Source: Dehalococcoidia bacterium
Lineage (GTDB): Bacteria; Chloroflexota; Dehalococcoidia; Bin125
Direction of reading: 5' to 3'
Assembly (NCBI GenBank): GCA_965211635.1
Contig: OZ242948.1
Location: forward strand, 99,730-163,729
Length of the DNA stretch: 64,000 nt
Shown piece after piece: positions 27,225 through 49,318 of the stretch. How positions within the stretch are numbered: position 1 is the stretch's first letter; each line of letters starts with the position of its first letter. The notes below the pieces were generated by a model. The model worked only from the letters and a program-made list of their open reading frames with translations. It searched no databases and was not told the DNA's origin. Both the position numbers and the translations under genes were made by a program.

Positions 27225-28049
27225 ATGGCCGATCCCGATCTCCTGCCGCCCGATCAACGCCTGGACATCGACCGCGTCCGCGCGTTGCTCACGACTTCCG
27301 AGGTTGGACGCAGTCTTCACTATCTCGTCCAGACGACCTCGACCATGGACGACGCCCGACGACTCGCCAACGAAGGCGCGCCGCACGGCGCCGTCGTCCT
27401 GGCCGACGAACAGACCGCCGGCCGCGGAACCAAGGGACGCATCTGGGTCTCGCCGCCCGGTGAGAGCATCCACGCCACGATCATCGTCCGCCCCGACATC
27501 GAGCAGCTCAAGCGGCTCAGCATCATCAGCCCGGTCGCCACGACCGACGCCGTCCTGGCGACAACTTCTCTGCGACCAACGATCAAGTGGCCCAACGACA
27601 TCCAGATCGAGTCACGCAAGCTGGGGGGCATCCTGATCGAAGCCGAGTGGGGCGATGGTCAGCCCCGCTACGCGCTGGTTGGGATCGGACTCAACATCAA
27701 CTTCGACCCCGCGCCCTGGGCAACGCAGATCGACCGTCCCGCCACCAGCCTGATGATCGAGCTGGGTCAGCGCCAGCAGCGCGAACCGGTCCTCGCCGCG
27801 CTGATCAACGCAATCGAGCGTCGCCTCTTGGAAGCCGCTTCGGCGGAGCTGCATCGAACCTGGAAATCAAGGCTCGACACGCTCGACAAGCCAGTCACGA
27901 TCAGCTCGCCAGGCGGTGGTGAGTTTCATGGAGTCGCCGTTGACGTTGACGAGGCAGGAGCGCTCATCGTGCGAGCAGACCACGGCGAGCGCCGGACATT
28001 CATCGCTGGCGAAGTCACGCTCCGGGAAACGACTCAATCGGAGTCGTGA
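27225..28049 (+). CDS. birA: Biotin--[acetyl-CoA-carboxylase] ligase (group I, no DNA-binding domain)
   Basis: …ADEQTAGRGTKGRIWVSPPG… and …KWPNDIQI… are BPL catalytic motifs. Confidence 0.85.
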   Translation: MADPDLLPPDQRLDIDRVRALLTTSEVGRSLHYLVQTTSTMDDARRLANEGAPHGAVVLADEQTAGRGTKGRIWVSPPGESIHATIIVRPDIEQLKRLSIISPVATTDAVLATTSLRPTIKWPNDIQIESRKLGGILIEAEWGDGQPRYALVGIGLNINFDPAPWATQIDRPATSLMIELGQRQQREPVLAALINAIERRLLEAASAELHRTWKSRLDTLDKPVTISSPGGGEFHGVAVDVDEAGALIVRADHGERRTFIAGEVTLRETTQSES

Positions 28050-31000
28050 GCGCCGGCCCTGTTCGTTCGAGAAGCAGGGCAGGCGCAGTCACTCGTCCGT
28101 CCCAGGGCAGCAGCGACCATGTTCCGTCGATCAGATCGAGCACGCAGCCACCAACGAGCGGCACCGCTTCCCGGCCCCCGACGAATGCCTGCATCCTTTC
28201 GGCCAAAGGAACTCCATCCGGATCGGTCCAATCGAGCAACCACGCCTTTACCCGTTGCGCCTTGGCGTTCCAACAGTCAGTCGGCGTGGAGTCGATGCGC
28301 CTCAGCATCTGATCCGCGTTGGTCAACCGCCGAAACGCGATGTGTACGGGTTCCACGTCCAATAGCGACGCATCTACCGTTAAGGTCGTACCGCCGCGTA
28401 CTACGGTCGTCTCGCCTAGTCCGCCTTCTGCAACGAACCGCATGCCGGCGCTTGCAGCGAACTCCCTGGCCAGCTCGCGCTCGAACTTTGTTTCACCGCC
28501 CATCGAACGCATGCGGGCATCGTCAATCTTCGCATCGACAGATCGAGGCCGACCGGTCGCATTGCCGGCCCAGATCTCGAATGCGGCCAGCGGCAAGCCC
28601 GAGGTATCCCTCACCGAACCGTTCGCGCCCGGTTCGTAACTGACCCGCACGGCGTCCAATGATGTGATCCGTTCAGACAGCGTCGCGGTCAGTTCGTACT
28701 CGGACCACGACATCGTGGCGACCGCAATGGTCCGCAAACCGGCGACCACCTTGAAGTCGCTTGGGAGCGCTTCGGCTCCACTGACCTGCTGATCGAATAC
28801 TGCTGTGATTGTGAAGGAATCGGCGGTTATCGACTCAACTCTCGGCGGCGTCTCTGTCAGGTTGCTGACCAGGAACACGCTGTCGGGCACTCTCGCTCCC
28901 GTCAGGCCGGAGATGCCGCCGCGCGAACCGGCGAGGTAGACGACACCGAACAGGTCCGGCTCGTCCGGCAAGGAGTCCGCCAGGATCAACGTCACCGCGG
29001 CTCCGCCAATCGAAACAGACTCCACATCCGTTGATAGCCCTCCCCCGACAATCTGGAATCTTGATGCTGCAATGCTCGTTGCCGACAAGGGCTGGTCGAA
29101 CCGGAGCACCACAAGTGTGCCGAAGGCATACGCGTTCTCGAGCGTCGGCGCGGCCGTCTCGTCGATCACATCGGTCTCGAACGGGGCCACGGTCAGGCCA
29201 TCGCCGGTCAGGGACTCACCGAAGTAGCTCAGGCGACGATCCTGGCCCGCGCGCAAGCCGGGCGGTGACATCTGCAGCTCCAACTCAGAGCCCTCGACCC
29301 GCTTGACCGACTCCACCACAGCCTCCCCGCTGATCGCAAATTCGGATGCCAGAGGGAGCGACTCGTCAAGCCGTGAGTCGAAGCCGACGCTCAGCCGAAC
29401 CTGGTCCGCGTGAGCGCTCAGCGCGCATGGAGCCGCCGCAGCGATCAACCGATTCAATGCCAGACGAGCCGCATCCTCCGCGCCGGAGTAGCGCAGCTCG
29501 ACAAAGTCGCCCGAGCAGATTGCCACGCCGGGCCGCAGCTCGACGGATTCGAGGGCCTCGATCACGGAGAATGGTCGCTGTTCTCCGTTGACAATCAGCT
29601 CCCATGAGTGATCTGGCCGGTCGGGCGAGCCAATCTCGTCATCGAACGTCAGAACCACTCCACCCACGTCCGAGCCAATACAGCGCAGCGCCCACTCTCG
29701 GTCGATAAAGTTGGTGACGCCAAGAGAAAATGACCCAACCCCGCGATTCCTCGCGTCGTACAGTTGCGTACGACTGGAGTCGTACTCGACGAGCACTTCG
29801 ACGCATTCGGGCGCAGCATCTTCAAGCCGGATGGTGAGCAAGTCAGCCATCGCCGAAGCCGACTTGACCGATGCGGCTACACCATCGACCGACACGTTCA
29901 GATCTGAGTGGTCGACCGACGCCAGCGCCAGCAGCGGGCCGTCAAAGCCAACCACGACCAAGTCGGGGGTCGTACGATCAATCGAGGCCGTCACCGCGCG
30001 TGCTGCGGTCAGATTCGAGACGTCCGCTTCGATGAACCCGTCGACCGTGTTGCCTGTCTCGTCCTCGAGGTTGAATCGGCCGTCTTCAATGGACTGGCCG
30101 ACGTACTCCAAGCGAACGGGCTCATCCGGCTGTAAGCGACGTGCAAGAGTCAGTGTCAACGTGTCGGACTCGAGCGCGATGTCCTCTATGCCAATCTCGC
30201 TTGCCGACTGACCAAAGACAGAGAACCAGACCAGGTCTGCGTTGTCGTCACACTCGAAGTCCTCGATCTCGCTCTCCAGGGTTTCGCACTTCGGAGGTGG
30301 TAACTGAGCGGGGTTCAGCGGTTGGTCGAAGGTGATCGTGATTAAGTCATCCCTGGCAACGATGTTCTCCACTTGCGGAGCCACATCGACGCTGTTCGTT
30401 ACTGCTTGGCTGAACGAGACCACCTGATTGCCTGCATCGTCGTCCTGCAGGCCACCTGAGTCCGGCGCGGAGTAGCTCAGTGTGATGTCCCAGCTCTCGC
30501 GAATCGGAGTCGTGGAACCGATCGTGAGCACCATCCTGTACTCGCCGTCCGTCTCCAAGGTGCGGACAACCGGATCGATGTCAGTTTCTGGCTCGGTGCT
30601 GAACCAGGACGGGTCGATAGACACGGGGGCCAGTACGCGCTGGTCAAACAGGACGGTGATGCTCTGCCCGTCGGCGTCGGTGTGTGCGCTGAGCGGGTAC
30701 GGCGCATAGTCGGTCAGGTTCTCCACAGCCAAGTCTTCGAATCCAAGCGCTCGCGTGCTGTTCACACCGAGCAGGGCGTCGGACTCAGGCGGCGAGTAGC
30801 TCAGCGAAAGCTCGTCGTTGTCTTCGACAACTGACTCATCCAGTGTCAACTGCAGGGTCTGCTGCTCAACTGCTATCGACCTAACGGCGGCGGCTGTACC
30901 GACCAGTTCAAATGCTGCCGACTCCGGAAGAGCGGCTGCGTCCAGTTCACCGTCGAAGATGACTTCCAGGACTCGACCATCGACACTGGCCGACTGTGCG

Positions 31001-34000
31001 CTCGCGGGCGTCACGTTGCGCAGCGGAAACGCGTTGATCTGCGCACGTTGTTGGCCCGGATCGTCGTCCCGGATTCTGATCGTTCCGAACGTAGGGAAGT
31101 ACGTGATCGAAATCTCGTCAGCGGCCGCGACGCGATCTGTCAGGCTGACCACAATCTTGCCGACTCCATCTGGCCCATCGGCGAACACGTGAACTTGTCT
31201 GATCCCGATACCAGTTCCGTCGAGCGTGAAGTGCTCGACTGGAAACGCCAGAGGATTTCCCTCCTCGTCTCGAAAGCGTGGGTCGGCAAAGATCTCCTGG
31301 TCAAGGATGACCACGATCTCGTCGCCGTCGATCGTCCCGGATGCCGGAATCGGCGGCGTGTCTGTCTGATTGTCAATGTCTGTGGTGAAGGACTCCGATT
31401 GATTACCTGTGAGATCGACCACGCCGCCTTGATCGGGTCGCGAGTACGTCAACGTGACCGACTCGTCCTCGGTCAGCGATTGGGACAGCGTCAACGTCAA
31501 TGTCTGACCATCGATTGAGTACGCCGTGACTGTCCTTGGGTCATCGTTGCTCAACGCGAACGACGCGAGCGAGACTGCCGCTTCGCCGTCCAGCGACTGG
31601 TCAAAGGTGAGGATCACGACCGCACCGTTGCCGACAGCGGTCGTCAGCTCCGCAGCGGTATCGGTGTTGTTGGTCAGCGACTCCGAGAAGGACGCGACCG
31701 CTTCATCGTCCAAAGTCCTGAGCGGCGTTTCTGACGGTCGCGTGTACGTCAACGTGTACTCGGCGCCCTCTTTCAGCGGAGTCGCCAGGGTGAGGCTCAA
31801 GGACATCGAGTTCACTACCACATCTTTGACCGTCGGTCCGTCCACACCAAGCGAGAACGCCGATGCAGCCGGCGTCGAATTGGTGTTCAACTCCTTCGAG
31901 AATGCGATCAGCACCTGCGATCCGTCACCGTCAACCGAACGGATCAGCGGCTCCGGGGTCCGGTTGTCCACCTCGAACCCGCCGAACGCAGCGACCTCGA
32001 GCGTTGTGCCTTGTCGCTTCAGTCTCGGTGTGTCCTCGGCCGAGTAGGAAACAGTGACCTGGTCTACAAATGCAAGCGGGGCGGCGAGTGTCAGCCTCAC
32101 ACTCGCCCCGTCGATCGAGACCGCGCTCACCGAGTGTCCTGCCGGCGTGACGCTGAAGTCGGCCATCGCGGGGACAGAGGATTGGTCCAGGGCGCGGTCG
32201 AACTCAAGCGTGACTACAGCCCCATTGGCCAACGCGCCGAGCGGACGAGGCACGCCGTCTGCCCTGTTGTCCACCGACTGGCTCGACCAGGCCGGACTCT
32301 TCCACGTGGCGTCGGCGCTCTGAAGCGCCGGGTCAGTCTCGGCGCCGGGCGACTTGTAGCCGATGGTCGCTGTCTCATTCAGATCGGCGGCCGGATCGAG
32401 GCTCAGCAACACGGTCGAGCCGCTTATCGAGACAGTCGCAACAGCCGCCGATGTCGTGCCGCCCAGCTCAAACGCCGACTTCGCAGGCGTGCCCGCCTCT
32501 GTGTCCAGTAGCGGCCCGGTCATGTGGATCGTCAACAGGCGGCCAGTGGCGTCGATTGAAGCCGAGTGGAACACGGGCGTCGGGTCCACGGTCAGGTTGT
32601 CGACTGTAAGCGACGCGAAACTGTCCACCTTGATCTCCTGCCCCGCACGCTTGAGCGCCGACTCGGTTGGCTGGGTGTAGGCAAGGACCAGTGTGTCCAG
32701 GTGGGTGACCGCAGCACTGAGCGTCAACGTCACTTCTTGTCCCGCTATCGACACGCCGGCGACTTCTGTAGAGCTCAAGCTCAGGCTGAACGCGGAAGCG
32801 GCCGGCGAAGACGAACCATCCAGTACCCGATCAAAACCCACGACCAGTACAGAGCCGTCAACGGTAGCCGAGCGAGGACGCGGCTTGCCGTCGGCATTGT
32901 TGGTCACGCTCTTCGACATGAACGCCTTGACCGCCTGCAAGTGGGCCAGAGAATGCAGTCGCGCCGCCGAAGAGTCAGTCGGCGGGGAGTAGTCGACCGT
33001 GATGGTCTCGCCAACGTCGGCCATTGGATCCAGGGATAGCGACACGCTCGACCCGCTGACGGCGACCGAATCGACCGCTGCGCTACCACCCGCGAGGGAG
33101 AACGTCGAAGCATCGGGCGTGTGCTCCTCGGACTCATCGAGAGCAAGCGAGAACGTGATGGTCAGCGTTGCGCCGTCTGCAGAAATCGAAGCGCTCTCAA
33201 ACTCCGGAGCCGGTGCGACGGTGTTGTTGGTCACCGGTTGATTCGTGAACGAAGCCGCGTCCAGGTTGTTGCGCGCTTCAATCCGAGGAGGGGCGTTCGG
33301 CTTCGAGTAGCTGATGGTGATGACCGCTCCGGCCGCCACTGCTTCGGAGAGCGTCAGGGTGACCGACTCATCGCTGAACGAGGACTCGGCGACCGTTACT
33401 CCCGACGCCCCGCCGATCGAGAACGCAGTTGCGGGCGCGACATTCTTGAGCGGCAAGTCGAACTCCACCGTCAGCGTGTCGTCGTTCACACGAGCTTCCG
33501 TGACTTCGGGCTTCTTCGTTGGCGTCTTGCTCTTGAACTGAAACCCGTAGACGTCTGCCACATTGTGTCCGCCGTCGAGCTGACGCAATGGGGACTCGTT
33601 CGGTTCGGTGTAATCGATTGTGTAGTTCGTCTCTCCGCCGGCGAGGATGCCGTTCAAGGTGAGCGAGACGGTGTCGCCGGAAATCTCTACTTTCGTGATC
33701 TCGCGTCCCTCAATCGAGAACGCGTCCCGTTCCGGAACGCTGTCTTCATCCAGCGCTTCCGAGAACACCAGGGTGACGATCTCGTACAGCGCCGACGCCG
33801 ATTGGAGCGTAGGCGGACTATCGACGATGTTGGTCACCGACCGTGCCGACCAGCTCTGCACGTGCTTGCCGCCCTGATCGAGATCCTGGAGCGGATAGTT
33901 TTCGTCGCCCAGCGCCTGGTCGTAGGCAAGCGTGACACTCTGGCCTTCGACCACTGACCGGCTCAGTTGGATGTCAAGTCGCTGGGGCGCGTCTGACGGG

Positions 34001-34575
34001 CGTATCAGGTCGGAGATGTCGGCGTCGTTGTCATCAACTTCGATGTCGAATGCCGAGAAGTCGGACCACTGGAAGCTGATGTCGCGGATCGGCTCGCAGA
34101 AGGTGACTTGTATGAAGCGGCCATCAGCGTCAGTCTCGACCGACGTGATCTCCGGCGCCGCGTCCGTGACGTTGTCGACGCTCTGGTCATCGAATGATTC
34201 GACTGCTCCCCCGCTCACTCCGACTAACGACGAAGCGCTGGGAATGTAGCTGACGCTGACGCTGCGGTCCGTACAGTCGATGTCCGCAATAGCATCTTCC
34301 AGGGTCAGACTTATCACGGCGCCGTCGATTGAGGCTGAGTCGACCGTCTGCGTCTCGTCGCCCAGCTTGACCGTGAAGTCTGCGGCGACGGCTGTGCTCG
34401 TTGCGGTCAGGTCTTCAGAAAGCGTAATCGTAAGTGTTGACCCATCGACCTGCGCCGCGCTCACCGCTGGAGGGCTCTGGGAAGCGGCGCGGCTGGCAAT
34501 CAGTGCTACTGCGATTGCCAATAGCGAGGCGGCGACGAGGGTCGCAAGCGATCCACTTCGACTCGCCCAGGGCAT
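28015..34575 (-). CDS. Giant (2186 aa) secreted/cell-surface protein with ~17 tandem ~100-aa Ig-like repeats and a unique ~170-aa C-terminal domain
   Basis: N-terminal signal peptide. Repeats follow the pattern SASIDGxxLTITFSxxLD…AFSL…VxSVxVSGxxVxLxL…TVxYxxP…LxDxxGNxxxSFxxQxVTNNT. Convergent 35-nt overlap with birA. GC is slightly below the flanks. Confidence 0.8.
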   Translation of the reverse strand: MPWASRSGSLATLVAASLLAIAVALIASRAASQSPPAVSAAQVDGSTLTITLSEDLTATSTAVAADFTVKLGDETQTVDSASIDGAVISLTLEDAIADIDCTDRSVSVSYIPSASSLVGVSGGAVESFDDQSVDNVTDAAPEITSVETDADGRFIQVTFCEPIRDISFQWSDFSAFDIEVDDNDADISDLIRPSDAPQRLDIQLSRSVVEGQSVTLAYDQALGDENYPLQDLDQGGKHVQSWSARSVTNIVDSPPTLQSASALYEIVTLVFSEALDEDSVPERDAFSIEGREITKVEISGDTVSLTLNGILAGGETNYTIDYTEPNESPLRQLDGGHNVADVYGFQFKSKTPTKKPEVTEARVNDDTLTVEFDLPLKNVAPATAFSIGGASGVTVAESSFSDESVTLTLSEAVAAGAVITISYSKPNAPPRIEARNNLDAASFTNQPVTNNTVAPAPEFESASISADGATLTITFSLALDESEEHTPDASTFSLAGGSAAVDSVAVSGSSVSLSLDPMADVGETITVDYSPPTDSSAARLHSLAHLQAVKAFMSKSVTNNADGKPRPRSATVDGSVLVVGFDRVLDGSSSPAASAFSLSLSSTEVAGVSIAGQEVTLTLSAAVTHLDTLVLAYTQPTESALKRAGQEIKVDSFASLTVDNLTVDPTPVFHSASIDATGRLLTIHMTGPLLDTEAGTPAKSAFELGGTTSAAVATVSISGSTVLLSLDPAADLNETATIGYKSPGAETDPALQSADATWKSPAWSSQSVDNRADGVPRPLGALANGAVVTLEFDRALDQSSVPAMADFSVTPAGHSVSAVSIDGASVRLTLAAPLAFVDQVTVSYSAEDTPRLKRQGTTLEVAAFGGFEVDNRTPEPLIRSVDGDGSQVLIAFSKELNTNSTPAASAFSLGVDGPTVKDVVVNSMSLSLTLATPLKEGAEYTLTYTRPSETPLRTLDDEAVASFSESLTNNTDTAAELTTAVGNGAVVILTFDQSLDGEAAVSLASFALSNDDPRTVTAYSIDGQTLTLTLSQSLTEDESVTLTYSRPDQGGVVDLTGNQSESFTTDIDNQTDTPPIPASGTIDGDEIVVILDQEIFADPRFRDEEGNPLAFPVEHFTLDGTGIGIRQVHVFADGPDGVGKIVVSLTDRVAAADEISITYFPTFGTIRIRDDDPGQQRAQINAFPLRNVTPASAQSASVDGRVLEVIFDGELDAAALPESAAFELVGTAAAVRSIAVEQQTLQLTLDESVVEDNDELSLSYSPPESDALLGVNSTRALGFEDLAVENLTDYAPYPLSAHTDADGQSITVLFDQRVLAPVSIDPSWFSTEPETDIDPVVRTLETDGEYRMVLTIGSTTPIRESWDITLSYSAPDSGGLQDDDAGNQVVSFSQAVTNSVDVAPQVENIVARDDLITITFDQPLNPAQLPPPKCETLESEIEDFECDDNADLVWFSVFGQSASEIGIEDIALESDTLTLTLARRLQPDEPVRLEYVGQSIEDGRFNLEDETGNTVDGFIEADVSNLTAARAVTASIDRTTPDLVVVGFDGPLLALASVDHSDLNVSVDGVAASVKSASAMADLLTIRLEDAAPECVEVLVEYDSSRTQLYDARNRGVGSFSLGVTNFIDREWALRCIGSDVGGVVLTFDDEIGSPDRPDHSWELIVNGEQRPFSVIEALESVELRPGVAICSGDFVELRYSGAEDAARLALNRLIAAAAPCALSAHADQVRLSVGFDSRLDESLPLASEFAISGEAVVESVKRVEGSELELQMSPPGLRAGQDRRLSYFGESLTGDGLTVAPFETDVIDETAAPTLENAYAFGTLVVLRFDQPLSATSIAASRFQIVGGGLSTDVESVSIGGAAVTLILADSLPDEPDLFGVVYLAGSRGGISGLTGARVPDSVFLVSNLTETPPRVESITADSFTITAVFDQQVSGAEALPSDFKVVAGLRTIAVATMSWSEYELTATLSERITSLDAVRVSYEPGANGSVRDTSGLPLAAFEIWAGNATGRPRSVDAKIDDARMRSMGGETKFERELAREFAASAGMRFVAEGGLGETTVVRGGTTLTVDASLLDVEPVHIAFRRLTNADQMLRRIDSTPTDCWNAKAQRVKAWLLDWTDPDGVPLAERMQAFVGGREAVPLVGGCVLDLIDGTWSLLPWDGRVTAPALLLERTGPALTTPIESFPGA

Positions 34576-36275: not shown

Positions 36276-37499
36276 TCAGATCACCATCCACCACGGGGCG
36301 GCAATCACGTTCGTCCCGATCTGCTCCACTGCGTCGCCGTCATGCAGCAGGAGCCCGGCCTTGCTGACGTCCCGGTACTCATCGAGGAACGCCCGCAGGT
36401 GCCGCACATCGCGCAGTCGCGGCGTTGCGCCCGACTTGACTTCAATCGGCAGCAGCTGGCCCGCTTGCTCGATCACGAGATCGACCTCCTGGTCGCTCGA
36501 CGTTCGCCAGTAGTAGATCTCGGCCCTGGTCGGCCGACTGTCTCGCCAGGTCAGAAGGTCGTGCAGCACGATGTTCTCCAGATGCGCGGCGCGCGGTTCC
36601 GCTTCCTGACTCAGTCGCAAGGCCAGGCCCGTGTCGCTCCAGTACGCCTTGGGCGACTTGATCAGACGCTTGGTGCGGTTGGATGTGTAGGCGGGCAGTC
36701 GCACGAACAGATAGGAGGTCTCCAGCAGGTTTAGATACCGGTGAACCGTTGACTGTGAGAGCGAGAGGTCGCGGGCCAGGTCGGACTGGTTGAGGATTTG
36801 GCCGACACGCAGGCAGGTGGCCCGCATGACGCGGCGGAAGTCTGGCAGGGCGGTGATGTTGGCCAGGTCGCGTAAGTCACGTTCGAGGTAGGTGCCGACG
36901 TACGCGTCGAACCAGATCGCCCGATCCTGGTGATGCGTCAGTTGCAGCGCAGGCACGGGGAATCCGCCCCGTCGCGCAAGCTCCCGCCAATCTTCCCGCT
37001 CGCTCGGCAGGGACCGCAGCAGCTCGGCCCACTGTCGGTGATCCGTCTCCAGTAGCCGCTCCCAGAGACCGTGGGGCCTGAGGCCGAGCTGCTCGCGGCG
37101 GGTCATCGGCCAGAGCGTGAGGTAGCTGGCGCGTCCGGCCAGGGACTCCGAAACACGTCTCATCAGCAGCAAGTTGGCCGAGCCGGTCAGCAGGAACTGT
37201 CCCGCCTGCCGGCGGCTGTCGACCGCGCTCTTGACCGCCTGCATCAAATCGGGCTCGCGCTGGACTTCATCCAGCGTGAGCGGCGTCTCGCCACCGATGA
37301 GCAAGCCGGGATCCTCACGGGCCGCTGAGCGAGCGTCGAAATCGTCTAGTGTTACATAACGTCGACTGTCGCCGGCCAGCTGCCGCGCCAGCGTGCTCTT
37401 GCCGGTCTGTCGGGCGCCGGTGACGACGACGACGGGCATGACTCTGAGTTGCTGCTCAAGGCTGTCGACGGCGAGCCGCGGGAGGATGCGTTCGTCCAT
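36276..37499 (-). CDS. AAA-type ATPase, DUF4143 family
   Basis: …VVVTGARQTGKSTLARQL… Walker A. C-terminal DUF4143-like region. Confidence 0.75.
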   Translation of the reverse strand: MDERILPRLAVDSLEQQLRVMPVVVVTGARQTGKSTLARQLAGDSRRYVTLDDFDARSAAREDPGLLIGGETPLTLDEVQREPDLMQAVKSAVDSRRQAGQFLLTGSANLLLMRRVSESLAGRASYLTLWPMTRREQLGLRPHGLWERLLETDHRQWAELLRSLPSEREDWRELARRGGFPVPALQLTHHQDRAIWFDAYVGTYLERDLRDLANITALPDFRRVMRATCLRVGQILNQSDLARDLSLSQSTVHRYLNLLETSYLFVRLPAYTSNRTKRLIKSPKAYWSDTGLALRLSQEAEPRAAHLENIVLHDLLTWRDSRPTRAEIYYWRTSSDQEVDLVIEQAGQLLPIEVKSGATPRLRDVRHLRAFLDEYRDVSKAGLLLHDGDAVEQIGTNVIAAPWWMVI

Positions 37500-37661
37500 G
37501 CGTGAATGATATTCGTTCTCTCCGTGAGTGATAATCAGTCAGTACATGAATGGTATTCGCTCACTAGGTGAATAGATTGCACGACGCCCGGAAAGAACGA
37601 GCCGTCGCGACTCAGCGAGCGAGCTTCCACTCCCGCTCCGCGCCGGGCATAGACTGAGCCC

Positions 37662-38375
37662 ATGATCGGAACCGCCAGCATCCGGACCAGCCGCCTGCTC
37701 GACCTCCCCGGCGGATCGTTCATCATGGGCGCCGACGACCGCCGCAGCGACGAGCGACCGGCGCACCGGGTCACGGTTGCCGCCTGCCGTGCAGCCGAGC
37801 GGCCGGTCAGCAACGACGATTTTGCGTCCTTCGTCGAGCAAACCGACGCTCCGCCGCCGCCGTTTTGGTCCCAGGACGGATTCCGCATCCCCGGCGCCCC
37901 CGTCGTCGGCATCTCCTGGCACGATGCGGTCGCCTACTGCCAGTGGCTGTCGGCACAGACGGGCACGCGCTTCCGCTTGCCGACCGAGGCGGAACGCGAG
38001 TACGCCGCTCGCGGCGGCCTTGCGGGCGCCGACTGGCCCGAGCCCGGCGCATGCTGGCCCGACGCTGCCTCGCGCGCGTCGATTGCAGCGGCCCGGCATC
38101 CGCACGTCCCGCTCAACGCCTGCCGCAACGGATTCGGCCTCTACTGCATGGCCGACAATGTGCACGAATGGTGCTCGGACTGGTACGAACGCAGCTTCTA
38201 CTCGGTCTCTCCGCAGCACGCGCCAACGGGTCCGGCTGCAGGCATGCGCAAGTCGAGCCGCGGCGGATCCTGGCGTCACCGGATCAAGTTCACCCGCGTC
38301 AGCGCCCGCTCCAGCCTCTCGCCCAGCTACCGCTACAACGACTACGGCTTCCGTGTCTATGCGGACGCCGAATGA
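37662..38375 (+). CDS. Formylglycine-generating enzyme (FGE-sulfatase/SUMF1/EgtB-C) family protein
   Basis: …GGSFIMGADD…ERPAHRVTV…, …PVVGISWHDAVAYCQWLS…RLPTEAEREYAARGG…, …GGSWR…. Confidence 0.8.
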   Translation: MIGTASIRTSRLLDLPGGSFIMGADDRRSDERPAHRVTVAACRAAERPVSNDDFASFVEQTDAPPPPFWSQDGFRIPGAPVVGISWHDAVAYCQWLSAQTGTRFRLPTEAEREYAARGGLAGADWPEPGACWPDAASRASIAAARHPHVPLNACRNGFGLYCMADNVHEWCSDWYERSFYSVSPQHAPTGPAAGMRKSSRGGSWRHRIKFTRVSARSSLSPSYRYNDYGFRVYADAE

Positions 38376-38393
38376 CCAGTTGAGGAGGTCAAC

Positions 38394-39404
38394 ATGCCGA
38401 CCCGCACTACCGTCGTCGGGTCCTGGCCGATCCCCTTCGGTCAACGACTCGAGCTGAAGCGCTACTACGCGGGAGAACTCTCGGACGAACAAGCCGACGG
38501 CGTCCTTGGGGCTGCGGCGCGGATCGCCATGGACGAGCAGATCGCCTGTGGACTCGACCAGATCATGGGCGGCGAGGTCTTCGCGCCCGACTTCCTCCAT
38601 CACATCCCGCCCAGACTCGACGGCCTCGAGACGCTGGCCCCGCGCATCACGTCACAAGGCCAGCAGGGCGTGGGACGCTACCGGGTGATCGGCAAGGTCG
38701 CCGCGCCGCGAGGCACCGGACACGCGAAGGCCTGGCGCCGCGAGCGAGGGATCGAGCCGCGCCTGGACAAGGCCTCGGTGCCGTCGCCGCTGACGATCGG
38801 CGGAGGATTCGTCATTGACGACGACGCCAGCGAGTCTGGTCACATGAACGACCTGATCGAGGTGGTCCAGGACGAAGTCGCCGACATGGTCGCAAACGGA
38901 CTCGGCGAAATCCAACTCGACGCGCCCGGCGAAGCGGTCAACCTGGTCTCCGAGCGCGAAACCGCTGAATCGCTGCTCTCGCTGGTCAAAGAGCCACTCG
39001 AGCCGGCCGCGGGCATCACCAGGACGATCCATTTCTGCCTCGGTGATATCGCACGCAAGCCCTCGATCGAGATCCAGAATCTGCGCGCGCTGATCCCCTT
39101 CATCCAGCAGCTCGACGGGATCGTCGATCGCGTCCACGTTGAGTGCTCATACGCCGGCCAGTGGGAGGAACACGGATTGCTGGCTGAACTGCCCAACAGC
39201 ATGCAGATCATCGCCGGCATCGCCGACGTGAAATCGAAGCCCGCCCCCGTAACCGAGCTGCGTGAGAAGATCGAGCGGCTGGTTGACGTGATCCCGCCCG
39301 GGCGGCTGCTCGTCTCCAGCAGTTGCGGCCTCGGACGAGTCCCCCACGACGAAGCGATCCGGCTGATGCGCAACCTGGTCAAAGCGGCCGAGTTAGTCGG
39401 CTAG
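38394..39404 (+). CDS. Cobalamin-independent methionine synthase (MetE) C-terminal-domain-like / UROD-MetE superfamily protein
   Basis: …TTVVGSWPIP…, central …HFCLGD…, C-terminal …SSSCGLG…. These resemble the MetE catalytic half (Zn/thiol-binding). Assigned from memory of the fold. Confidence 0.55.
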   Translation: MPTRTTVVGSWPIPFGQRLELKRYYAGELSDEQADGVLGAAARIAMDEQIACGLDQIMGGEVFAPDFLHHIPPRLDGLETLAPRITSQGQQGVGRYRVIGKVAAPRGTGHAKAWRRERGIEPRLDKASVPSPLTIGGGFVIDDDASESGHMNDLIEVVQDEVADMVANGLGEIQLDAPGEAVNLVSERETAESLLSLVKEPLEPAAGITRTIHFCLGDIARKPSIEIQNLRALIPFIQQLDGIVDRVHVECSYAGQWEEHGLLAELPNSMQIIAGIADVKSKPAPVTELREKIERLVDVIPPGRLLVSSSCGLGRVPHDEAIRLMRNLVKAAELVG

Positions 39405-39420
39405 CAGTAAGGAGCGATTC

Positions 39421-40425
39421 GTGGAACTCAGATCACTCGGACGAACCGGGGTACAGGTATCGAGCCTCTGCCTGGGCTGCATGATGTTCGGCCGACGCAC
39501 CGAGCCAGAGGAGTCCTACGCCATGATCGACCGCGCCCTCGAGGCTGGAATCAACTTCCTCGACACGGCCAACGTCTACGCGCTGGGCCGCAGCGAGGAG
39601 ATCACCGGCGAGGCGCTCAAGCGCAACGGGAAGCGGCAGAGCGTCGTCCTCGCGACCAAAGTCCACGGACAGATGGACGCCGAGGACCCTAACGCGCGGG
39701 GCAACAGCCGGCGTCACATCATCGAGCAGTGCGAGGCCAGCTTGCGCCGCCTGCAGACCGACTACATCGACCTCTACCAGCTTCACCGACCGCAAGCCGA
39801 CATCCCAATCGACGAGACGCTGCGCGCGCTCGACGACCTGGTTCGCGACGGCAAGGTGCGCTACATCGGCACCAGCAACTTCGGCGGCTGGGAGCTGGTC
39901 GAATCGCTCTGGGTGGCGAAGGAGCTGGGACTCAACCGCGTCGTCTGCGAGCAGCCCGCCTACAACCTGCTCGACCGTCGGGTCGAGAGCGAACTGCTGC
40001 CCGCCGCCCGCACCTTCGGTATCGCCGTGATCCCCTGGGGTCCGCTCGGCGGCGGCCTGCTCAGCGGTCGCTTCCAGCGAGGCGAGCCATTGCCCGCCGA
40101 TAGTCGCTATGCATTGACGCCGCAGGCGCAGAATCGGCTCACCGACGGCGTCTTCGACGTGATCGAAGCGCTCACGCCGATTGCTCAGGAGAAGGGCTGC
40201 AGCCTCTCGCAGCTTGCCCTCGCCTGGTGCGAGCAGCAGCCCGGCGTGACTAGCCCGATTATCGGCCCGAGAACGATGGAGCAACTCGAAGACAACCTCG
40301 GCTCAGCCGACGTCGTCATCACCGACGAAGACCGCGAGCGCATCGACGCGGTCAATCCACCCGGCTGGACGGTCACGCCCTACTACGAACTCTTCCGGCG
40401 GCCGCACGAGTATCGGATCCTGTAG
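39421..40425 (+). CDS. Aldo/keto reductase
   Basis: …LGRTGVQVSSLCLGCMMFG…, …IDLYQLHRP…, …IGTSNF…. Confidence 0.9.
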   Translation: MELRSLGRTGVQVSSLCLGCMMFGRRTEPEESYAMIDRALEAGINFLDTANVYALGRSEEITGEALKRNGKRQSVVLATKVHGQMDAEDPNARGNSRRHIIEQCEASLRRLQTDYIDLYQLHRPQADIPIDETLRALDDLVRDGKVRYIGTSNFGGWELVESLWVAKELGLNRVVCEQPAYNLLDRRVESELLPAARTFGIAVIPWGPLGGGLLSGRFQRGEPLPADSRYALTPQAQNRLTDGVFDVIEALTPIAQEKGCSLSQLALAWCEQQPGVTSPIIGPRTMEQLEDNLGSADVVITDEDRERIDAVNPPGWTVTPYYELFRRPHEYRIL

Positions 40426-45928: not shown

Positions 45929-46693
45929 ATGCCCAGACCCCGAGTTCTGCAATGGATCCCAATCGCGCTCGTCGCTGTAATCGCCGTCCTGATCGGCACG
46001 GTTGTGCTGACCACCGCCGACGACTCAGACGACTCCGCTCAGGACGTCCGCATCCTCGCCCGGCAGACCGGCGACGGTCGTGCCGAGGTCGCGCTCCAGG
46101 TCCGCGCCGATGATCACACCTGGGGCGAGCGCGTCCTCCCTGAGCAACGATTCCTCGCGCCGGATTCCGAAGCGGGACTCTGGCGGGCGAGCTCGATCAT
46201 CACGGTGGAAGCCGAGGATGACTCGGATGGCGTCGATCCAGCCGCCTTCGGCCTGACCGCAACCGCCGAAATGCGCGGACCCGACGGCGAGCCGATGGGA
46301 GCCGTCACCATCATCCAGGCTCCACGCGGACTCCTGATCCAGGCGCGCCTGACCGCTGTACCTGAAGGCTGGCATGGGTTCCACATCCACGAAACGGGAT
46401 CCTGCGAGCCCGACTTCTCGGCCGCCGGCGGACATTACAACCCGACCGGCATCGGTCACGGCATTCTGCACGAGGCTGGACATCACCCAGGCGACACAGT
46501 CAACATCTACGCGCACGCCGACGGCACGGCCAACGCCGACCAGTACACGGTTGAAGCCACGCTCGGCGCAGGTGCGGCTACCCTGTTCGATGCCGACGGC
46601 TCCGCCATCATCGTGCACGAAGGCCCGGACAGCTACGGCGCCGAGCCCGGCGCCGGCGGTCGCGTCGCCTGCGGCGTCATCACCCTCAACTGA
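45929..46693 (+). CDS. sodC: Membrane-anchored Cu/Zn superoxide dismutase
   Basis: N-terminal TM. …HGFHIHETGSC…AGGHYNP…GDTVNI…IVHEGPD…GGRVACGVI…. Confidence 0.85.
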   Translation: MPRPRVLQWIPIALVAVIAVLIGTVVLTTADDSDDSAQDVRILARQTGDGRAEVALQVRADDHTWGERVLPEQRFLAPDSEAGLWRASSIITVEAEDDSDGVDPAAFGLTATAEMRGPDGEPMGAVTIIQAPRGLLIQARLTAVPEGWHGFHIHETGSCEPDFSAAGGHYNPTGIGHGILHEAGHHPGDTVNIYAHADGTANADQYTVEATLGAGAATLFDADGSAIIVHEGPDSYGAEPGAGGRVACGVITLN

Positions 46694-46873: not shown

Positions 46874-46978
46874 TTGGGGTGACGGCCCCTCCCCTGTCCT
46901 GACCAGTTGCCCGACAATCCCCCACTCGATAGCCTCAGAATGCATCCGACCATTGAAGCATCCCAAGAGGAGCACCGA

Positions 46979-47383
46979 ATGTCCTTGTTCCAGACCGCCT
47001 CCGCCCACTGCGACCTGCCTTGCGGCGTCTACGACCCCGCCCAGGCCAAGATCGAAGCGATGTCCGTCCTCAAGTCGATGGAGAAGTACAACGACTCCGA
47101 CGACCACGACTTCAAGGCCCGCTGCACCATCGTCAAGGAACAGCGCGCCGAGGAGGTCAAGCACCACCTCTGGGTCCTCTGGACCGACTTCTTCAAGCCC
47201 CACCACCTCGAGGCCGACGCCTCGATCCACGAGCTCATGTGGAACGCGACCAAGGTCGCCGGCGAAGCCAAGAAGACCAACGACGTCGCCAAAGGCCAGG
47301 AACTGATCGACCTGATCGACCAGATCAGCGACAAGTTCTGGGCCACCGCCGAGGGTCCGGGCGCCGGCGTCTACGCGCAGTAG
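46979..47383 (+). CDS. sodN: Nickel superoxide dismutase precursor
   Basis: Pro-peptide MSLFQTASA, then the Ni-hook HCDLPCGVYDPAQA… of mature Ni-SOD. Alternative starts in the ORF are at 46907 and 46940. Confidence 0.85.
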   Translation: MSLFQTASAHCDLPCGVYDPAQAKIEAMSVLKSMEKYNDSDDHDFKARCTIVKEQRAEEVKHHLWVLWTDFFKPHHLEADASIHELMWNATKVAGEAKKTNDVAKGQELIDLIDQISDKFWATAEGPGAGVYAQ

Positions 47384-47470: not shown

Positions 47471-49318
47471 CTAGGAGCCTGCGGCCATGGCGAAGTCGGC
47501 GGGCGAGTCGTCATACTCCTCGACCGGTGCACCGGCGGAGAAGGCGGCGTCATCTCGAGATATCTGCTTACCCATCGCTCGCTCTATCAGATTGAGCAAC
47601 CGTTCCGCTCTGAGGGAGAAGAATTGCCAAAAGTCGTCGTCGCGCAGGGGCTCTTCACCAATGAGATGAGAGCGGAGCACTGCAGAGAGCCGCTCCGGTG
47701 CAATCTCCTCTTCCAGCCTGATTAGGTACGCGGAAGGCGCGCGGCCGCCGATCATGCGATTGGTGTGCGCGGAGATCGCGGTCTTGTTGATGATGCTGTT
47801 GTACTTCGCAGGAGGAATCGGCGGCTTGCTCTCGTTGCACCACTTCTGTGGGAATACGTGGTGGATATCGACCGACTCCTCGTCGACCACTTGAAAGACG
47901 AGCGGCTCGGCAGTTCTAAAGTCGAGCGAACCCTCTCGCATAAGCAGCGCGTGAATGCCCTTGTATGCCGCGCTGTTTCGAGTTCGCAGTGTGAGCAACC
48001 GATTGGCCTGAAATCCAGCGTCCCGAATCGTTGAAGGCTCGCCGCCTTGTGAACGAATCCAGTTGACCACCTCCACCAAATCGCGAGCAAAGGTCGATTC
48101 GACGGCACTTCCGTACATCTCCCCAAGCACCCCGCACCAGTACCACTTGGCGATGTTCTGTTGGACAGAGTCAGCAGAGGCGTGGTGTCCTAAGTCAGCA
48201 AAGATCGCAGCCAGAGGGACGAGCTGTGTCTGATAGGGAACGTCTTGCGACTTGAAGACGTGCTGCCGCCGCAGAAACCGCGCAGCTTCTATGAACCCGT
48301 TCTCAATGGCGTCGGCCCATCTCTTGTACTCAGCCAGCGATAGCTGCAGAATCTCGCGTCTCCGACAACCAACCGCAGGTTGCCGTTCCGCGCCTGGGTT
48401 TTGGCTGACCGCTCTGCGGCGACGCTCTAGTGTCGCCAACAGCGTCACTGCTTGGAGGAACTGATCACCTTGGACGCTGGCAAGAATGCCGAACTTCTCT
48501 CTCATCCGGTCCCGCCGTTGTTCCCAGTTCTCTCGAAGCTGGAAACTGTCAGCCGCGAATGATGCCGTGACGAGCTCGAACACCGTTAGCGTCACGCCAC
48601 CTGTATTGACCTTCTCAAACACGAGGCAGACCGCTTCCTTGGTCGTGCTCTTTGCCATTTGAATCACTGGGACCTGGTACTTTTTGAAGCGCTCGATCAC
48701 CTCGGCCTCGAAGCGGTCATAGAGATCGACCAATTCATCTGCATGTTTGTGATACCTGTTGAACTCCCTGCGCCAACTGGCAGCGTCGAATATCTGATCG
48801 AGCGGGAACAGAGCTTGCTCGTACTCTTGCTCTGGCGTTGAGAGGTCAAGTTCTATGTCTCGAAGTCGCCGGATCTGTCGATCGGCTGGTACGCCGAAGA
48901 TCCATTCGTCCCTCTCTCCTTCATCGCTCAGCGCAAGATTCATGTCGATGTAGTAGTGCCTGTGCAGGATTTTTCCCCGAGTGTCGCGCGTCCGGACCGG
49001 AGACTTAGTGAAGAGAGCCTGATACAGCGAGGTCAACCGCTGTTGGCCATCGAGCAACAGCGTGTCAGGAACAGGAGGGTCGTCAAGGCTGGCACCTTCA
49101 ATCACCCGCGGCTTGAAGGCAACGTCGCCGCCATTCTCCAAGGTCATGATCGCATTGATCGGGAATGAGACGGAGATACTAGCGATCAAGCTACGAATTC
49201 GCTCGTCGTCCCAGACCCACGGGCGCTGAAAGTCCGGTAGCTGCAATGAACCCTCATTGACAGCCTTGAGCAAATCGGCGAGTCGCACCTCGTTAGTTGT
49301 GAAATCGGCTCCAAGCAC
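47471..49318 (-). CDS. DUF262 (ParB-like NTPase) + DUF1524 (His-Me finger nuclease) protein: GmrSD-type type IV restriction / SspE-like defense nuclease
   Basis: N-terminal …LPDFQRPWVWDDERIRSLIASI…FPINAIM… (DUF262 DGQQR-type: …LLDGQQRLTSL…). C-terminal …HHVFPQKW… (DUF1524). Segment GC ~56%. Confidence 0.8.
   Translation of the reverse strand: MLGADFTTNEVRLADLLKAVNEGSLQLPDFQRPWVWDDERIRSLIASISVSFPINAIMTLENGGDVAFKPRVIEGASLDDPPVPDTLLLDGQQRLTSLYQALFTKSPVRTRDTRGKILHRHYYIDMNLALSDEGERDEWIFGVPADRQIRRLRDIELDLSTPEQEYEQALFPLDQIFDAASWRREFNRYHKHADELVDLYDRFEAEVIERFKKYQVPVIQMAKSTTKEAVCLVFEKVNTGGVTLTVFELVTASFAADSFQLRENWEQRRDRMREKFGILASVQGDQFLQAVTLLATLERRRRAVSQNPGAERQPAVGCRRREILQLSLAEYKRWADAIENGFIEAARFLRRQHVFKSQDVPYQTQLVPLAAIFADLGHHASADSVQQNIAKWYWCGVLGEMYGSAVESTFARDLVEVVNWIRSQGGEPSTIRDAGFQANRLLTLRTRNSAAYKGIHALLMREGSLDFRTAEPLVFQVVDEESVDIHHVFPQKWCNESKPPIPPAKYNSIINKTAISAHTNRMIGGRAPSAYLIRLEEEIAPERLSAVLRSHLIGEEPLRDDDFWQFFSLRAERLLNLIERAMGKQISRDDAAFSAGAPVEEYDDSPADFAMAAGS

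Follow-up and report, generated by a model that had tools for sequence, protein, structure and literature searches.

This report concerns a 64-kb stretch of DNA (hereafter the window) from a Dehalococcoidia bacterium of the Chloroflexota (assembly GCA_965211635.1, contig OZ242948.1, positions 99,730 to 163,729), and three + strand genes within it at 37662-40425. These encode, in order, a protein with the fold of the formylglycine-generating enzyme (FGE), a protein resembling the C-terminal half of the cobalamin-independent methionine synthase MetE, and an aldo/keto reductase (AKR), referred to below as genes 1, 2 and 3. A preliminary description, made from the DNA letters without database searches, considered them a tight three-gene cassette. 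Our analysis finds a lineage-restricted operon of two uncharacterized enzymes, genes 1 and 2, with no evidence of a sulfur or selenium natural-product pathway. The features of the locus are as follows.

37500-37661, + strand: intergenic region 5′ of gene 1, with its sole sigma-70-like match at 37506-37535
37662-38375, + strand: gene 1, 237 aa, ATG start, single FGE-sulfatase domain
38376-38393, + strand: spacer between genes 1 and 2, 18 nt, containing the Shine-Dalgarno sequence GAGGAGG (read from the sequence)
38394-39404, + strand: gene 2, 336 aa, ATG start, Meth_synt_2 barrel
39405-39420, + strand: spacer between genes 2 and 3, 16 nt, containing the Shine-Dalgarno sequence AAGGAG
39421-40425, + strand: gene 3, 334 aa, GTG start, AKR

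All three open reading frames (ORFs) are real, conserved genes. Across many metagenome-assembled genomes (MAGs), relatives of gene 2 reach 91% identity and those of gene 1 reach 81%, and an identical copy of gene 1 is found on a 3.10-Mb contig. As the GC content at third codon positions (0.83-0.85) is similar to that of neighboring genes, genes 1-3 look native. Genes 1 and 2 are arranged as in an operon, on the same strand with a Shine-Dalgarno sequence in the short gap, and are probably co-transcribed; the sigma-70-like site at 37506-37535 is a consensus match only, and the promoter is putative. The preliminary description had placed the three ORFs correctly and its domain calls (FGE-sulfatase, Meth_synt_2 and AKR) were borne out by Pfam, while the gaps it gave as 19 and 17 nt are each one nucleotide shorter.

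Folds and conserved residues of genes 1 and 2

Almost the entire length of gene 2 (residues 5-333 of 336) matches the Pfam domain Meth_synt_2 (2.6e-18), and no further domain is present. For a profile built from 16 relatives with 59-90% identity, the best match was the C-terminal barrel of T. maritima MetE (1xpg; E 2.7e-17). Residues H213, C215, E250 and C311 of gene 2 align with the MetE zinc ligands His618, Cys620, Glu642 and Cys704, and S10, E61 and D176 align with the homocysteine-binding Ser, Glu and Asp; both sets are invariant in the 16 relatives. In MetE and MesD, homocysteine is held by this Ser/Glu/Asp set through its carboxylate and amino groups (Price et al., 2021; PMC7857596). The N-terminal domain of MetE, Meth_synt_1, is missing from gene 2, and the pterin-stacking Trp539 of 1xpg falls in a segment that the gene 2 family lacks. 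Since the zinc- and homocysteine-binding residues are kept and both the folate N-domain and the pterin Trp are absent, gene 2 is, by the definition of Price et al. (2021), a "core MetE."

Comparison of structures agrees with this assignment. In Foldseek searches with the AlphaFold2 model of gene 2 (pLDDT 84), the MetE C-terminal barrel (E 4e-18) and MesD (3rpd) were each matched with a TM-score of 0.80, compared with 0.54-0.61 (UROD about 0.57), at E values of 1e-7 or weaker, for UROD- and MtaA-like chains. Because these scores are far below those for MetE and Pfam gives no URO-D hit, a barrel of the UROD/MT2 type is ruled out, and the preliminary identification of gene 2 as MetE-like rather than an unrelated barrel such as UROD holds on profile, zinc-ligand and structural grounds alike.

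Gene 2 scored far below the cutoffs of all methionine-synthase models in NCBIfam: 43.5 bits for TIGR01371 (cutoff 930), 79 for PRK04326 (406), 33 for PRK00957 (258) and 30 for PRK09121 (392). Against MesD (3rpd), its profile scored 42 bits, placing it outside that family, for which the threshold is 560 bits (Price et al., 2021; PMC7857596). The family to which gene 2 belongs is tight. In a search of 1.84 billion representatives, it amounted to little more than a single cluster at 50% identity, with a few sister clusters, and only 28 matches had E values below 1e-30; members of the 90%-identity cluster containing gene 2 carry the GenBank label "hypothetical protein." Among the best 150 of 663 representative matches there was no fusion of an FGE domain to Meth_synt_2; the long matches in this set contained Kelch, PfkB or SAM-methyltransferase domains or were full-length MetE. 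From these comparisons, made via MesD 3rpd and the NCBIfam models, gene 2 is predicted to represent a mostly marine, unnamed core-MetE family apart from MesA-D, and we infer that it acts on a thiol substrate by methyl transfer.

Gene 1 has a single domain, FGE-sulfatase (PF03781; 3.9e-44; residues 12-232 of 237). Its N terminus, as read from the sequence, lacks a signal peptide, and the protein is predicted to be cytoplasmic. The top Foldseek match of its AlphaFold2 model (pLDDT 83) is S. coelicolor FGE (2q17; E 1e-19, TM-score 0.77, 31% identity), and matches after the FGEs include PvdO, pFGE, ToxD, CalU17, PorK and the C-terminal domains of EgtB. Scores were far below cutoff for each of the NCBIfam models GldK (96 bits, cutoff 350), PvdO (85, 500), SenA (72.7, 420), EgtB (65.5, 360) and OvoA (42.3, 400), and the EgtB and SenA models align to gene 1 by their C-terminal part only.

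The catalytic residues of characterized relatives are not retained. The FGE catalytic segment GGS-x-x-C-x-x-x-x-C-x-R-Y-R has as its counterpart in gene 1 GGSWRHRIKFTR, which contains no Cys and is 3 residues shorter; where FGE has the Cu(I)-binding cysteine motif GGS-x-x-C-x-x-x-x-C, gene 1 reads RGGSWRHRIKFTR. In the alignment to FGE, the first Cys position is occupied by H206 (or R205) and the second lies within the 3-residue deletion, and the active-site Trp of FGE (N-A-W-E-W) is replaced by His168. As the preliminary description had stated, gene 1 contains neither a DinB nor a methyltransferase domain in Pfam and NCBIfam scans. Because the DinB domain is absent, so is the 3-His iron site of EgtB, OvoA and SenA. 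With both copper cysteines and the DinB/iron domain missing, gene 1 is neither an FGE nor a member of the EgtB/OvoA/SenA group, and the catalytic basis for the C-S bond or formylglycine chemistry that the preliminary description associated with its fold is gone.

In place of these sites, gene 1 and its relatives share the signature NVHEWC...RGGSWRHxxKFxR. Across 81 relatives with 41-62% identity, H168, C171, W204, R205, H206, R212 and R216 are invariant and K209 is nearly so. Most of these relatives are on metagenome contigs from IMG sample series that we take to be soil, peat and marine. Gene 1 belongs to an FGE-fold subfamily of its own, which is widespread and uncharacterized, and its active site is remodelled. 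The conserved change at the FGE copper site might create a novel catalytic or binding site, and the two histidines may form a new site for a metal or substrate.

Distribution of the gene pair and of its neighbors

A scan of GTDB species representatives yielded 80 loci with relatives of gene 2 (numbered with the prefix L). In all 41 loci in which the relative has at least 75% identity, gene 1 is immediately upstream, and all are from Dehalococcoidia/Chloroflexota MAGs. A further pair is on an ENA contig (L081), bringing the adjacency to 42 of 42 loci, with spacers of 7-45 nt. From their bin names and locus tags, the closest relatives are presumably from sponge metagenome assemblies. The borders of the pair are less constant. 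On the upstream side, 16 loci have an AAA ATPase (DUF4143), 15 have a short-chain dehydrogenase/reductase (SDR) and 10 have some other gene; on the downstream side, 15 have the AKR, five have an SDR and 21 have some other gene. The pair is in a different context in six loci (L029, L030, L035, L036, L078 and L081), twice beside a tRNA gene. Since both borders vary and the adjacency stays, the pair both moves and persists as a unit. The tRNA gene is directly 5′ of gene 1 in L030 (5180-5253) and in L081 (4892-4965), and it may mark a rearrangement or integration breakpoint.

Gene 3 is a full-length AKR (Aldo_ket_red, PF00248; 9.3e-84; residues 16-312) that reaches no NCBIfam equivalog cutoff. Only 19 of the 42 clade loci contain the AKR, which is directly adjacent in 15 and displaced by 0.7-2.5 kb in four; it is missing from the more divergent half of the Dehalococcoidia clade. 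The AKR is therefore a facultative neighbor and no conserved part of the unit, and the three-gene cassette of the preliminary description reduces to a pair. In L017 (7012-9538), gene 2 and the AKR are separated by an insertion of about 2.3 kb, which carries two small ORFs and, in the opposite orientation, an ORF of 401 aa. By their look, we take the small ORFs to resemble a HigB/HigA toxin-antitoxin pair and the 401-aa ORF to contain RCC1-like repeats. Directly preceding the AKR at this locus is what is left of another gene 2 copy, a 3′ relic of 82 aa. Unrelated AKRs (27-29% identity) adjoin gene 2 relatives in two other lineages, a weak hint of a recurrent association.

In other lineages, gene 2 relatives are found in several contexts. 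The most regular is in marine Acidimicrobiia, where in 14 loci (L050-L055, L058-L062, L066, L067 and L072) a gene for a fatty-acid-desaturase-like membrane protein is followed by the gene 2 relative and then by a PhyH dioxygenase gene; stop and start codons of this trio overlap (e.g., L050 4847-8017), as in a tight operon. Upstream of it are genes for an MFS transporter, an Rv2258c-like methyltransferase, a glyoxalase and a HAD hydrolase. PhyH occurs again near gene 2 relatives in L069 and L166, DUF3604 and family III CoA-transferases are each neighbors in three lineages, and AKRs, DAO and a creatinase-like peptidase are also found. In L166 (2889-7126), a gene 2 relative with 69% identity lies 170 nt 3′ of a homocysteine S-methyltransferase gene (PF02574), with MsrB (SelR) and PhyH nearby. 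These neighbors, in the only context that points directly to homocysteine or methionine metabolism, support a connection of the gene 2 family to it.

A different locus, L069 (4739-8662) of a Pseudomonadota MAG, has a gene 2 relative between a PhyH dioxygenase gene and a convergent gene for a 366-aa FGE-sulfatase-domain protein. The latter is about 0.55 kb from the gene 2 relative and 32% identical to gene 1. We rejected this locus as a second, independent FGE-MetE association, since it is one of 39 loci, involves another subfamily and is on the opposite strand.

In about 20 of the 80 loci of gene 1 relatives (L089, L105, L109, L113, L119, L127, L135 and others), the relative is followed by an SDR gene at a distance of about 100 nt. 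Many of these share four upstream genes, which by their look we take to encode TPR, small membrane, LOG-family and TMP-TENI-like proteins. Clustering of neighbors in these metagenomes found this to be the single conserved synteny (upstream genes with the SDR directly 3′), and it gives no functional lead.

Surroundings in the window

The window is chromosomal housekeeping DNA, encoding RuvABC, UvrB, FtsK, RNase J, TatABC, a Mur ligase and aro/trp genes along with two superoxide dismutases, RNase P RNA and a tRNA. Neither it nor the annotated loci contain a sulfatase, DinB, EgtD, SelD, DUF1852, corrinoid or Meth_synt_1 gene, and none of the approximately 60 ORFs of the window has a Sulfatase domain. 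Around genes 1-3 there is no transporter or tailoring gene and no SenB, SenC or methyltransferase partner for gene 1; MesX/DUF1852, CoFeSP and MtrA are absent from the window and from the Pfam-annotated loci L081 and L162-L166. The intergenic region 37500-37661 holds only ORFs of 21 and 29 aa, neither a credible precursor peptide. Biosynthetic genes, among them ones for a precursor peptide, a sulfatase, EgtD or SelD, are absent from the window. It is speculation that, as the preliminary description suggested, the genes specify a novel metabolite containing sulfur or selenium, or modify a peptide.

Between gene 1 and the SDR gene upstream is an AAA_14/DUF4143 ATPase gene (36276-37499, - strand). 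It is present in 16 of the 42 related loci, its identity across loci varies widely (61-78%), and it looks like a variable insertion. Farther upstream, 28015-34575 (- strand) encodes a 2186-aa protein with nine SWM_repeat units and a Big_5 domain, predicted to be a giant surface or adhesin-like protein, in a region of lower GC content (0.60-0.63). A large serine recombinase gene (Resolvase, Recombinase and Zn-ribbon domains; 19208-20674, + strand) and the gene for RNase P RNA (21440-21839, + strand) are about 0.8 kb apart. Since the Mur ligase ORF at 21764-23650 overlaps the 3′ end of this RNA, its true start must be further downstream. Downstream of genes 1-3, a Cu/Zn superoxide dismutase with an N-terminal extension of about 120 aa (45929-46693, + strand) is alongside a Ni superoxide dismutase (46907-47383). 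A GmrSD-type restriction endonuclease, matched in its N-terminal domain, is encoded at 47471-49318 (- strand) in a stretch with a GC content of 0.59, compared with about 0.65, which may be a small defense island.

Possible roles of the pair and comparison with known systems

What might the two enzymes do? Tentatively, and at slightly short of an even chance, we favor a lineage-specific two-gene unit of sponge-type Dehalococcoidia, in which gene 2 would carry out thiol alkylation on a core-MetE zinc site and gene 1 would be at most accessory. Such a unit would have come about when two enzymes, each widespread without the other, were brought side by side. Gene 2 would bind homocysteine, or a very similar α-amino-acid thiol, through its Ser/Glu/Asp residues, activate the thiol on the His-Cys-Glu-Cys zinc site and alkylate it, most likely by methylation to methionine with a donor other than methyl-folate; it would then represent a fifth family, as yet unnamed, in addition to MesA-D. 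Gene 1 might prepare or present the donor or the substrate in this lineage, and the AKR would be an optional passenger. As to any functional coupling of genes 1 and 2, we consider its presence and its absence about equally probable.

Several observations weigh against a functional unit. Other adjacencies in the clade are equally kept (ECH-SDR and SDR-phosphoesterase in 31 of 31 loci each, a further one in 32 of 32), so the 42 of 42 count may largely reflect shared ancestry. The preliminary expectation of conserved linkage is borne out in one Dehalococcoidia clade and fails outside it in either direction. Thirty-nine loci with gene 2 relatives of 56-66% identity, from Acidimicrobiia, Myxococcota, Pseudomonadota and other Dehalococcoidia, have no gene-1-type FGE gene within 6 kb, and none is adjacent in three further contexts with relatives of 67-69% identity. 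Conversely, no MetE-like gene is found in 80 metagenome loci with gene 1 relatives of 41-58% identity, covered up to 4 kb per side and less on short contigs, nor beside P0206 and P0229, gene 1 relatives (59-63% identity) in unrelated contexts that are as close to gene 1 as the most divergent in-clade copies. Because linkage vanishes outside the clade both ways, the pairing appears to be a juxtaposition at the base of one lineage. In addition, the 64-kb window contains no methionine-pathway gene, and a search for SAM or cobalamin riboswitches was negative for the window, for 37300-38500 (Rfam, E<=1) and for 24 related loci.

These points bear most directly on the alternative that genes 1 and 2 are mere neighbors, co-transcribed by historical accident and serving unrelated processes, with gene 2 a stand-alone thiol methyltransferase and gene 1 non-catalytic or unrelated. 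We consider this a serious if somewhat doubtful possibility. It would explain why, outside the clade, the closest relatives of either gene stand without the other one and why other gene pairs of the region are as well conserved. It also fits the frequent reuse of the FGE fold for non-enzymatic binding, as in PorK (PMC12421860), type VI secretion system immunity proteins (bioRxiv 10.1101/2021.05.21.445229) and the variable proteins of diversity-generating retroelements (PMC5758913). It is harder to reconcile with a pair that is never split in 42 species-level loci though both borders have been rearranged, and with the tight 18-nt gap with a Shine-Dalgarno sequence inside. The variable, catabolic-looking neighbors of gene 2 relatives (PhyH, desaturase-like protein, DUF3604, CoA-transferases, AKRs, DAO and creatinase-like peptidase) would suit another MetE-fold zinc thiol alkyltransferase working with oxidative partners, either a detoxifying or catabolic enzyme resembling epoxyalkane:coenzyme M transferase or one that takes a methyl or alkyl group off a marine osmolyte or thioether. 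As the homocysteine-binding Ser/Glu/Asp residues are invariant, we regard such an activity as improbable.

Two further alternatives have less in their favor. We judge it very improbable that genes 1-3 together make up a biosynthetic cassette, whether for a novel small molecule containing sulfur or selenium or for a peptide modification, in which gene 1 performs EgtB- or FGE-type chemistry and gene 2 alkylates the resulting thiol. The pair is conserved within the clade, some natural-product pathways do include FGE-fold proteins (the fold matches of gene 1 include ToxD and CalU17), and the preliminary view that an FGE-MetE-like pair matches no named pathway still stands: we found no paper describing such a pair or combining FGE, cobalamin-independent methionine synthase and a gene cluster. 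However, gene 1 lacks both the Cu-binding Cys pair and the DinB/3-His iron domain, the AKR is dispensable, both families are mostly alone in other taxa, and the surroundings are housekeeping genes with no precursor ORF, SelD, EgtD, sulfatase, transporter or tailoring gene. Least probable of all is a split MetE, in which gene 2 would supply the catalytic subunit and use methyl-pterin together with a separately encoded Meth_synt_1 subunit. Split MetE proteins exist in archaea (PMC7857596), but no Meth_synt_1 gene is present in the window or the annotated loci and the position of the pterin-stacking Trp539 is deleted.

A more specific form of the two-gene unit that we favor would join it to the contexts in other lineages. 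The gene 2 family could be a fifth folate-independent methionine synthase that receives its methyl group from an O2-dependent partner swapped between lineages, the partner being the FGE-fold two-His protein in sponge Dehalococcoidia and PhyH plus a desaturase-like di-iron protein in Acidimicrobiia and others. The recurring O2-dependent iron enzymes beside gene 2 relatives recall the need of MesD for MesX and oxygen. We think this proposal unlikely. If it were true, gene 1 would be the first enzyme of the FGE fold to take part in supplying one-carbon units. More generally, should gene 2 prove to be a functional methionine synthase that uses an unknown donor, it would found a fifth folate-independent family, and predictions of methionine and B12 dependence would change for abundant marine and sponge-associated Chloroflexota and Acidimicrobiia.

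How do the two proteins compare with known systems? Gene 1 has the same fold as FGE/SUMF1 (TM-score 0.75-0.78, 28-31% identity) and keeps the Ca-site region N-x-x-E-W-x-x-D-W. It differs in lacking both Cu cysteines, in having His168 in place of Trp and in being about 50-60 residues shorter. With EgtB, OvoA and SenA it shares the C-terminal FGE-like domain, whereas the DinB domain with the 3-His iron site is absent and its scores of 42-73 bits compare with cutoffs of 360-420. PvdO, pFGE/SUMF2, PorK, ToxD and CalU17, all among its fold matches, likewise have the FGE fold without the Cys pair. PvdO and PorK, however, are located in the periplasm or outer membrane, whereas gene 1 has neither a signal peptide nor a lipobox; it also has its own H168/R205/H206/K209/R212 signature and scores below the PvdO and GldK cutoffs.

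For gene 2, the C-terminal domain of full-length MetE is the best match in both sequence and fold, with an identical His-x-Cys...Glu...Cys zinc site, although full-length MetE has a Meth_synt_1 N-domain and a pterin-stacking Trp that gene 2 lacks. The core methionine synthases MesA-MesD are folate-independent and have a single catalytic domain, and MesD is a core MetE that needs oxygen and an adjacent partner of unknown chemistry, MesX (Price et al., 2021; PMC7857596). We found no follow-up study on MesX or on new core methionine synthase families. Like these proteins, gene 2 is a single MetE barrel (about 330-340 aa) that keeps the zinc and Ser/Glu/Asp residues and has no folate domain. Among the differences, no corrinoid protein is encoded near gene 2, and its sequence similarity to MesD is marginal. 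As with MesD and MesX, gene 2 adjoins, in an aerobe, a partner gene of unknown chemistry; the partner is DUF1852 in the known system and an FGE-fold protein here, in one lineage only.

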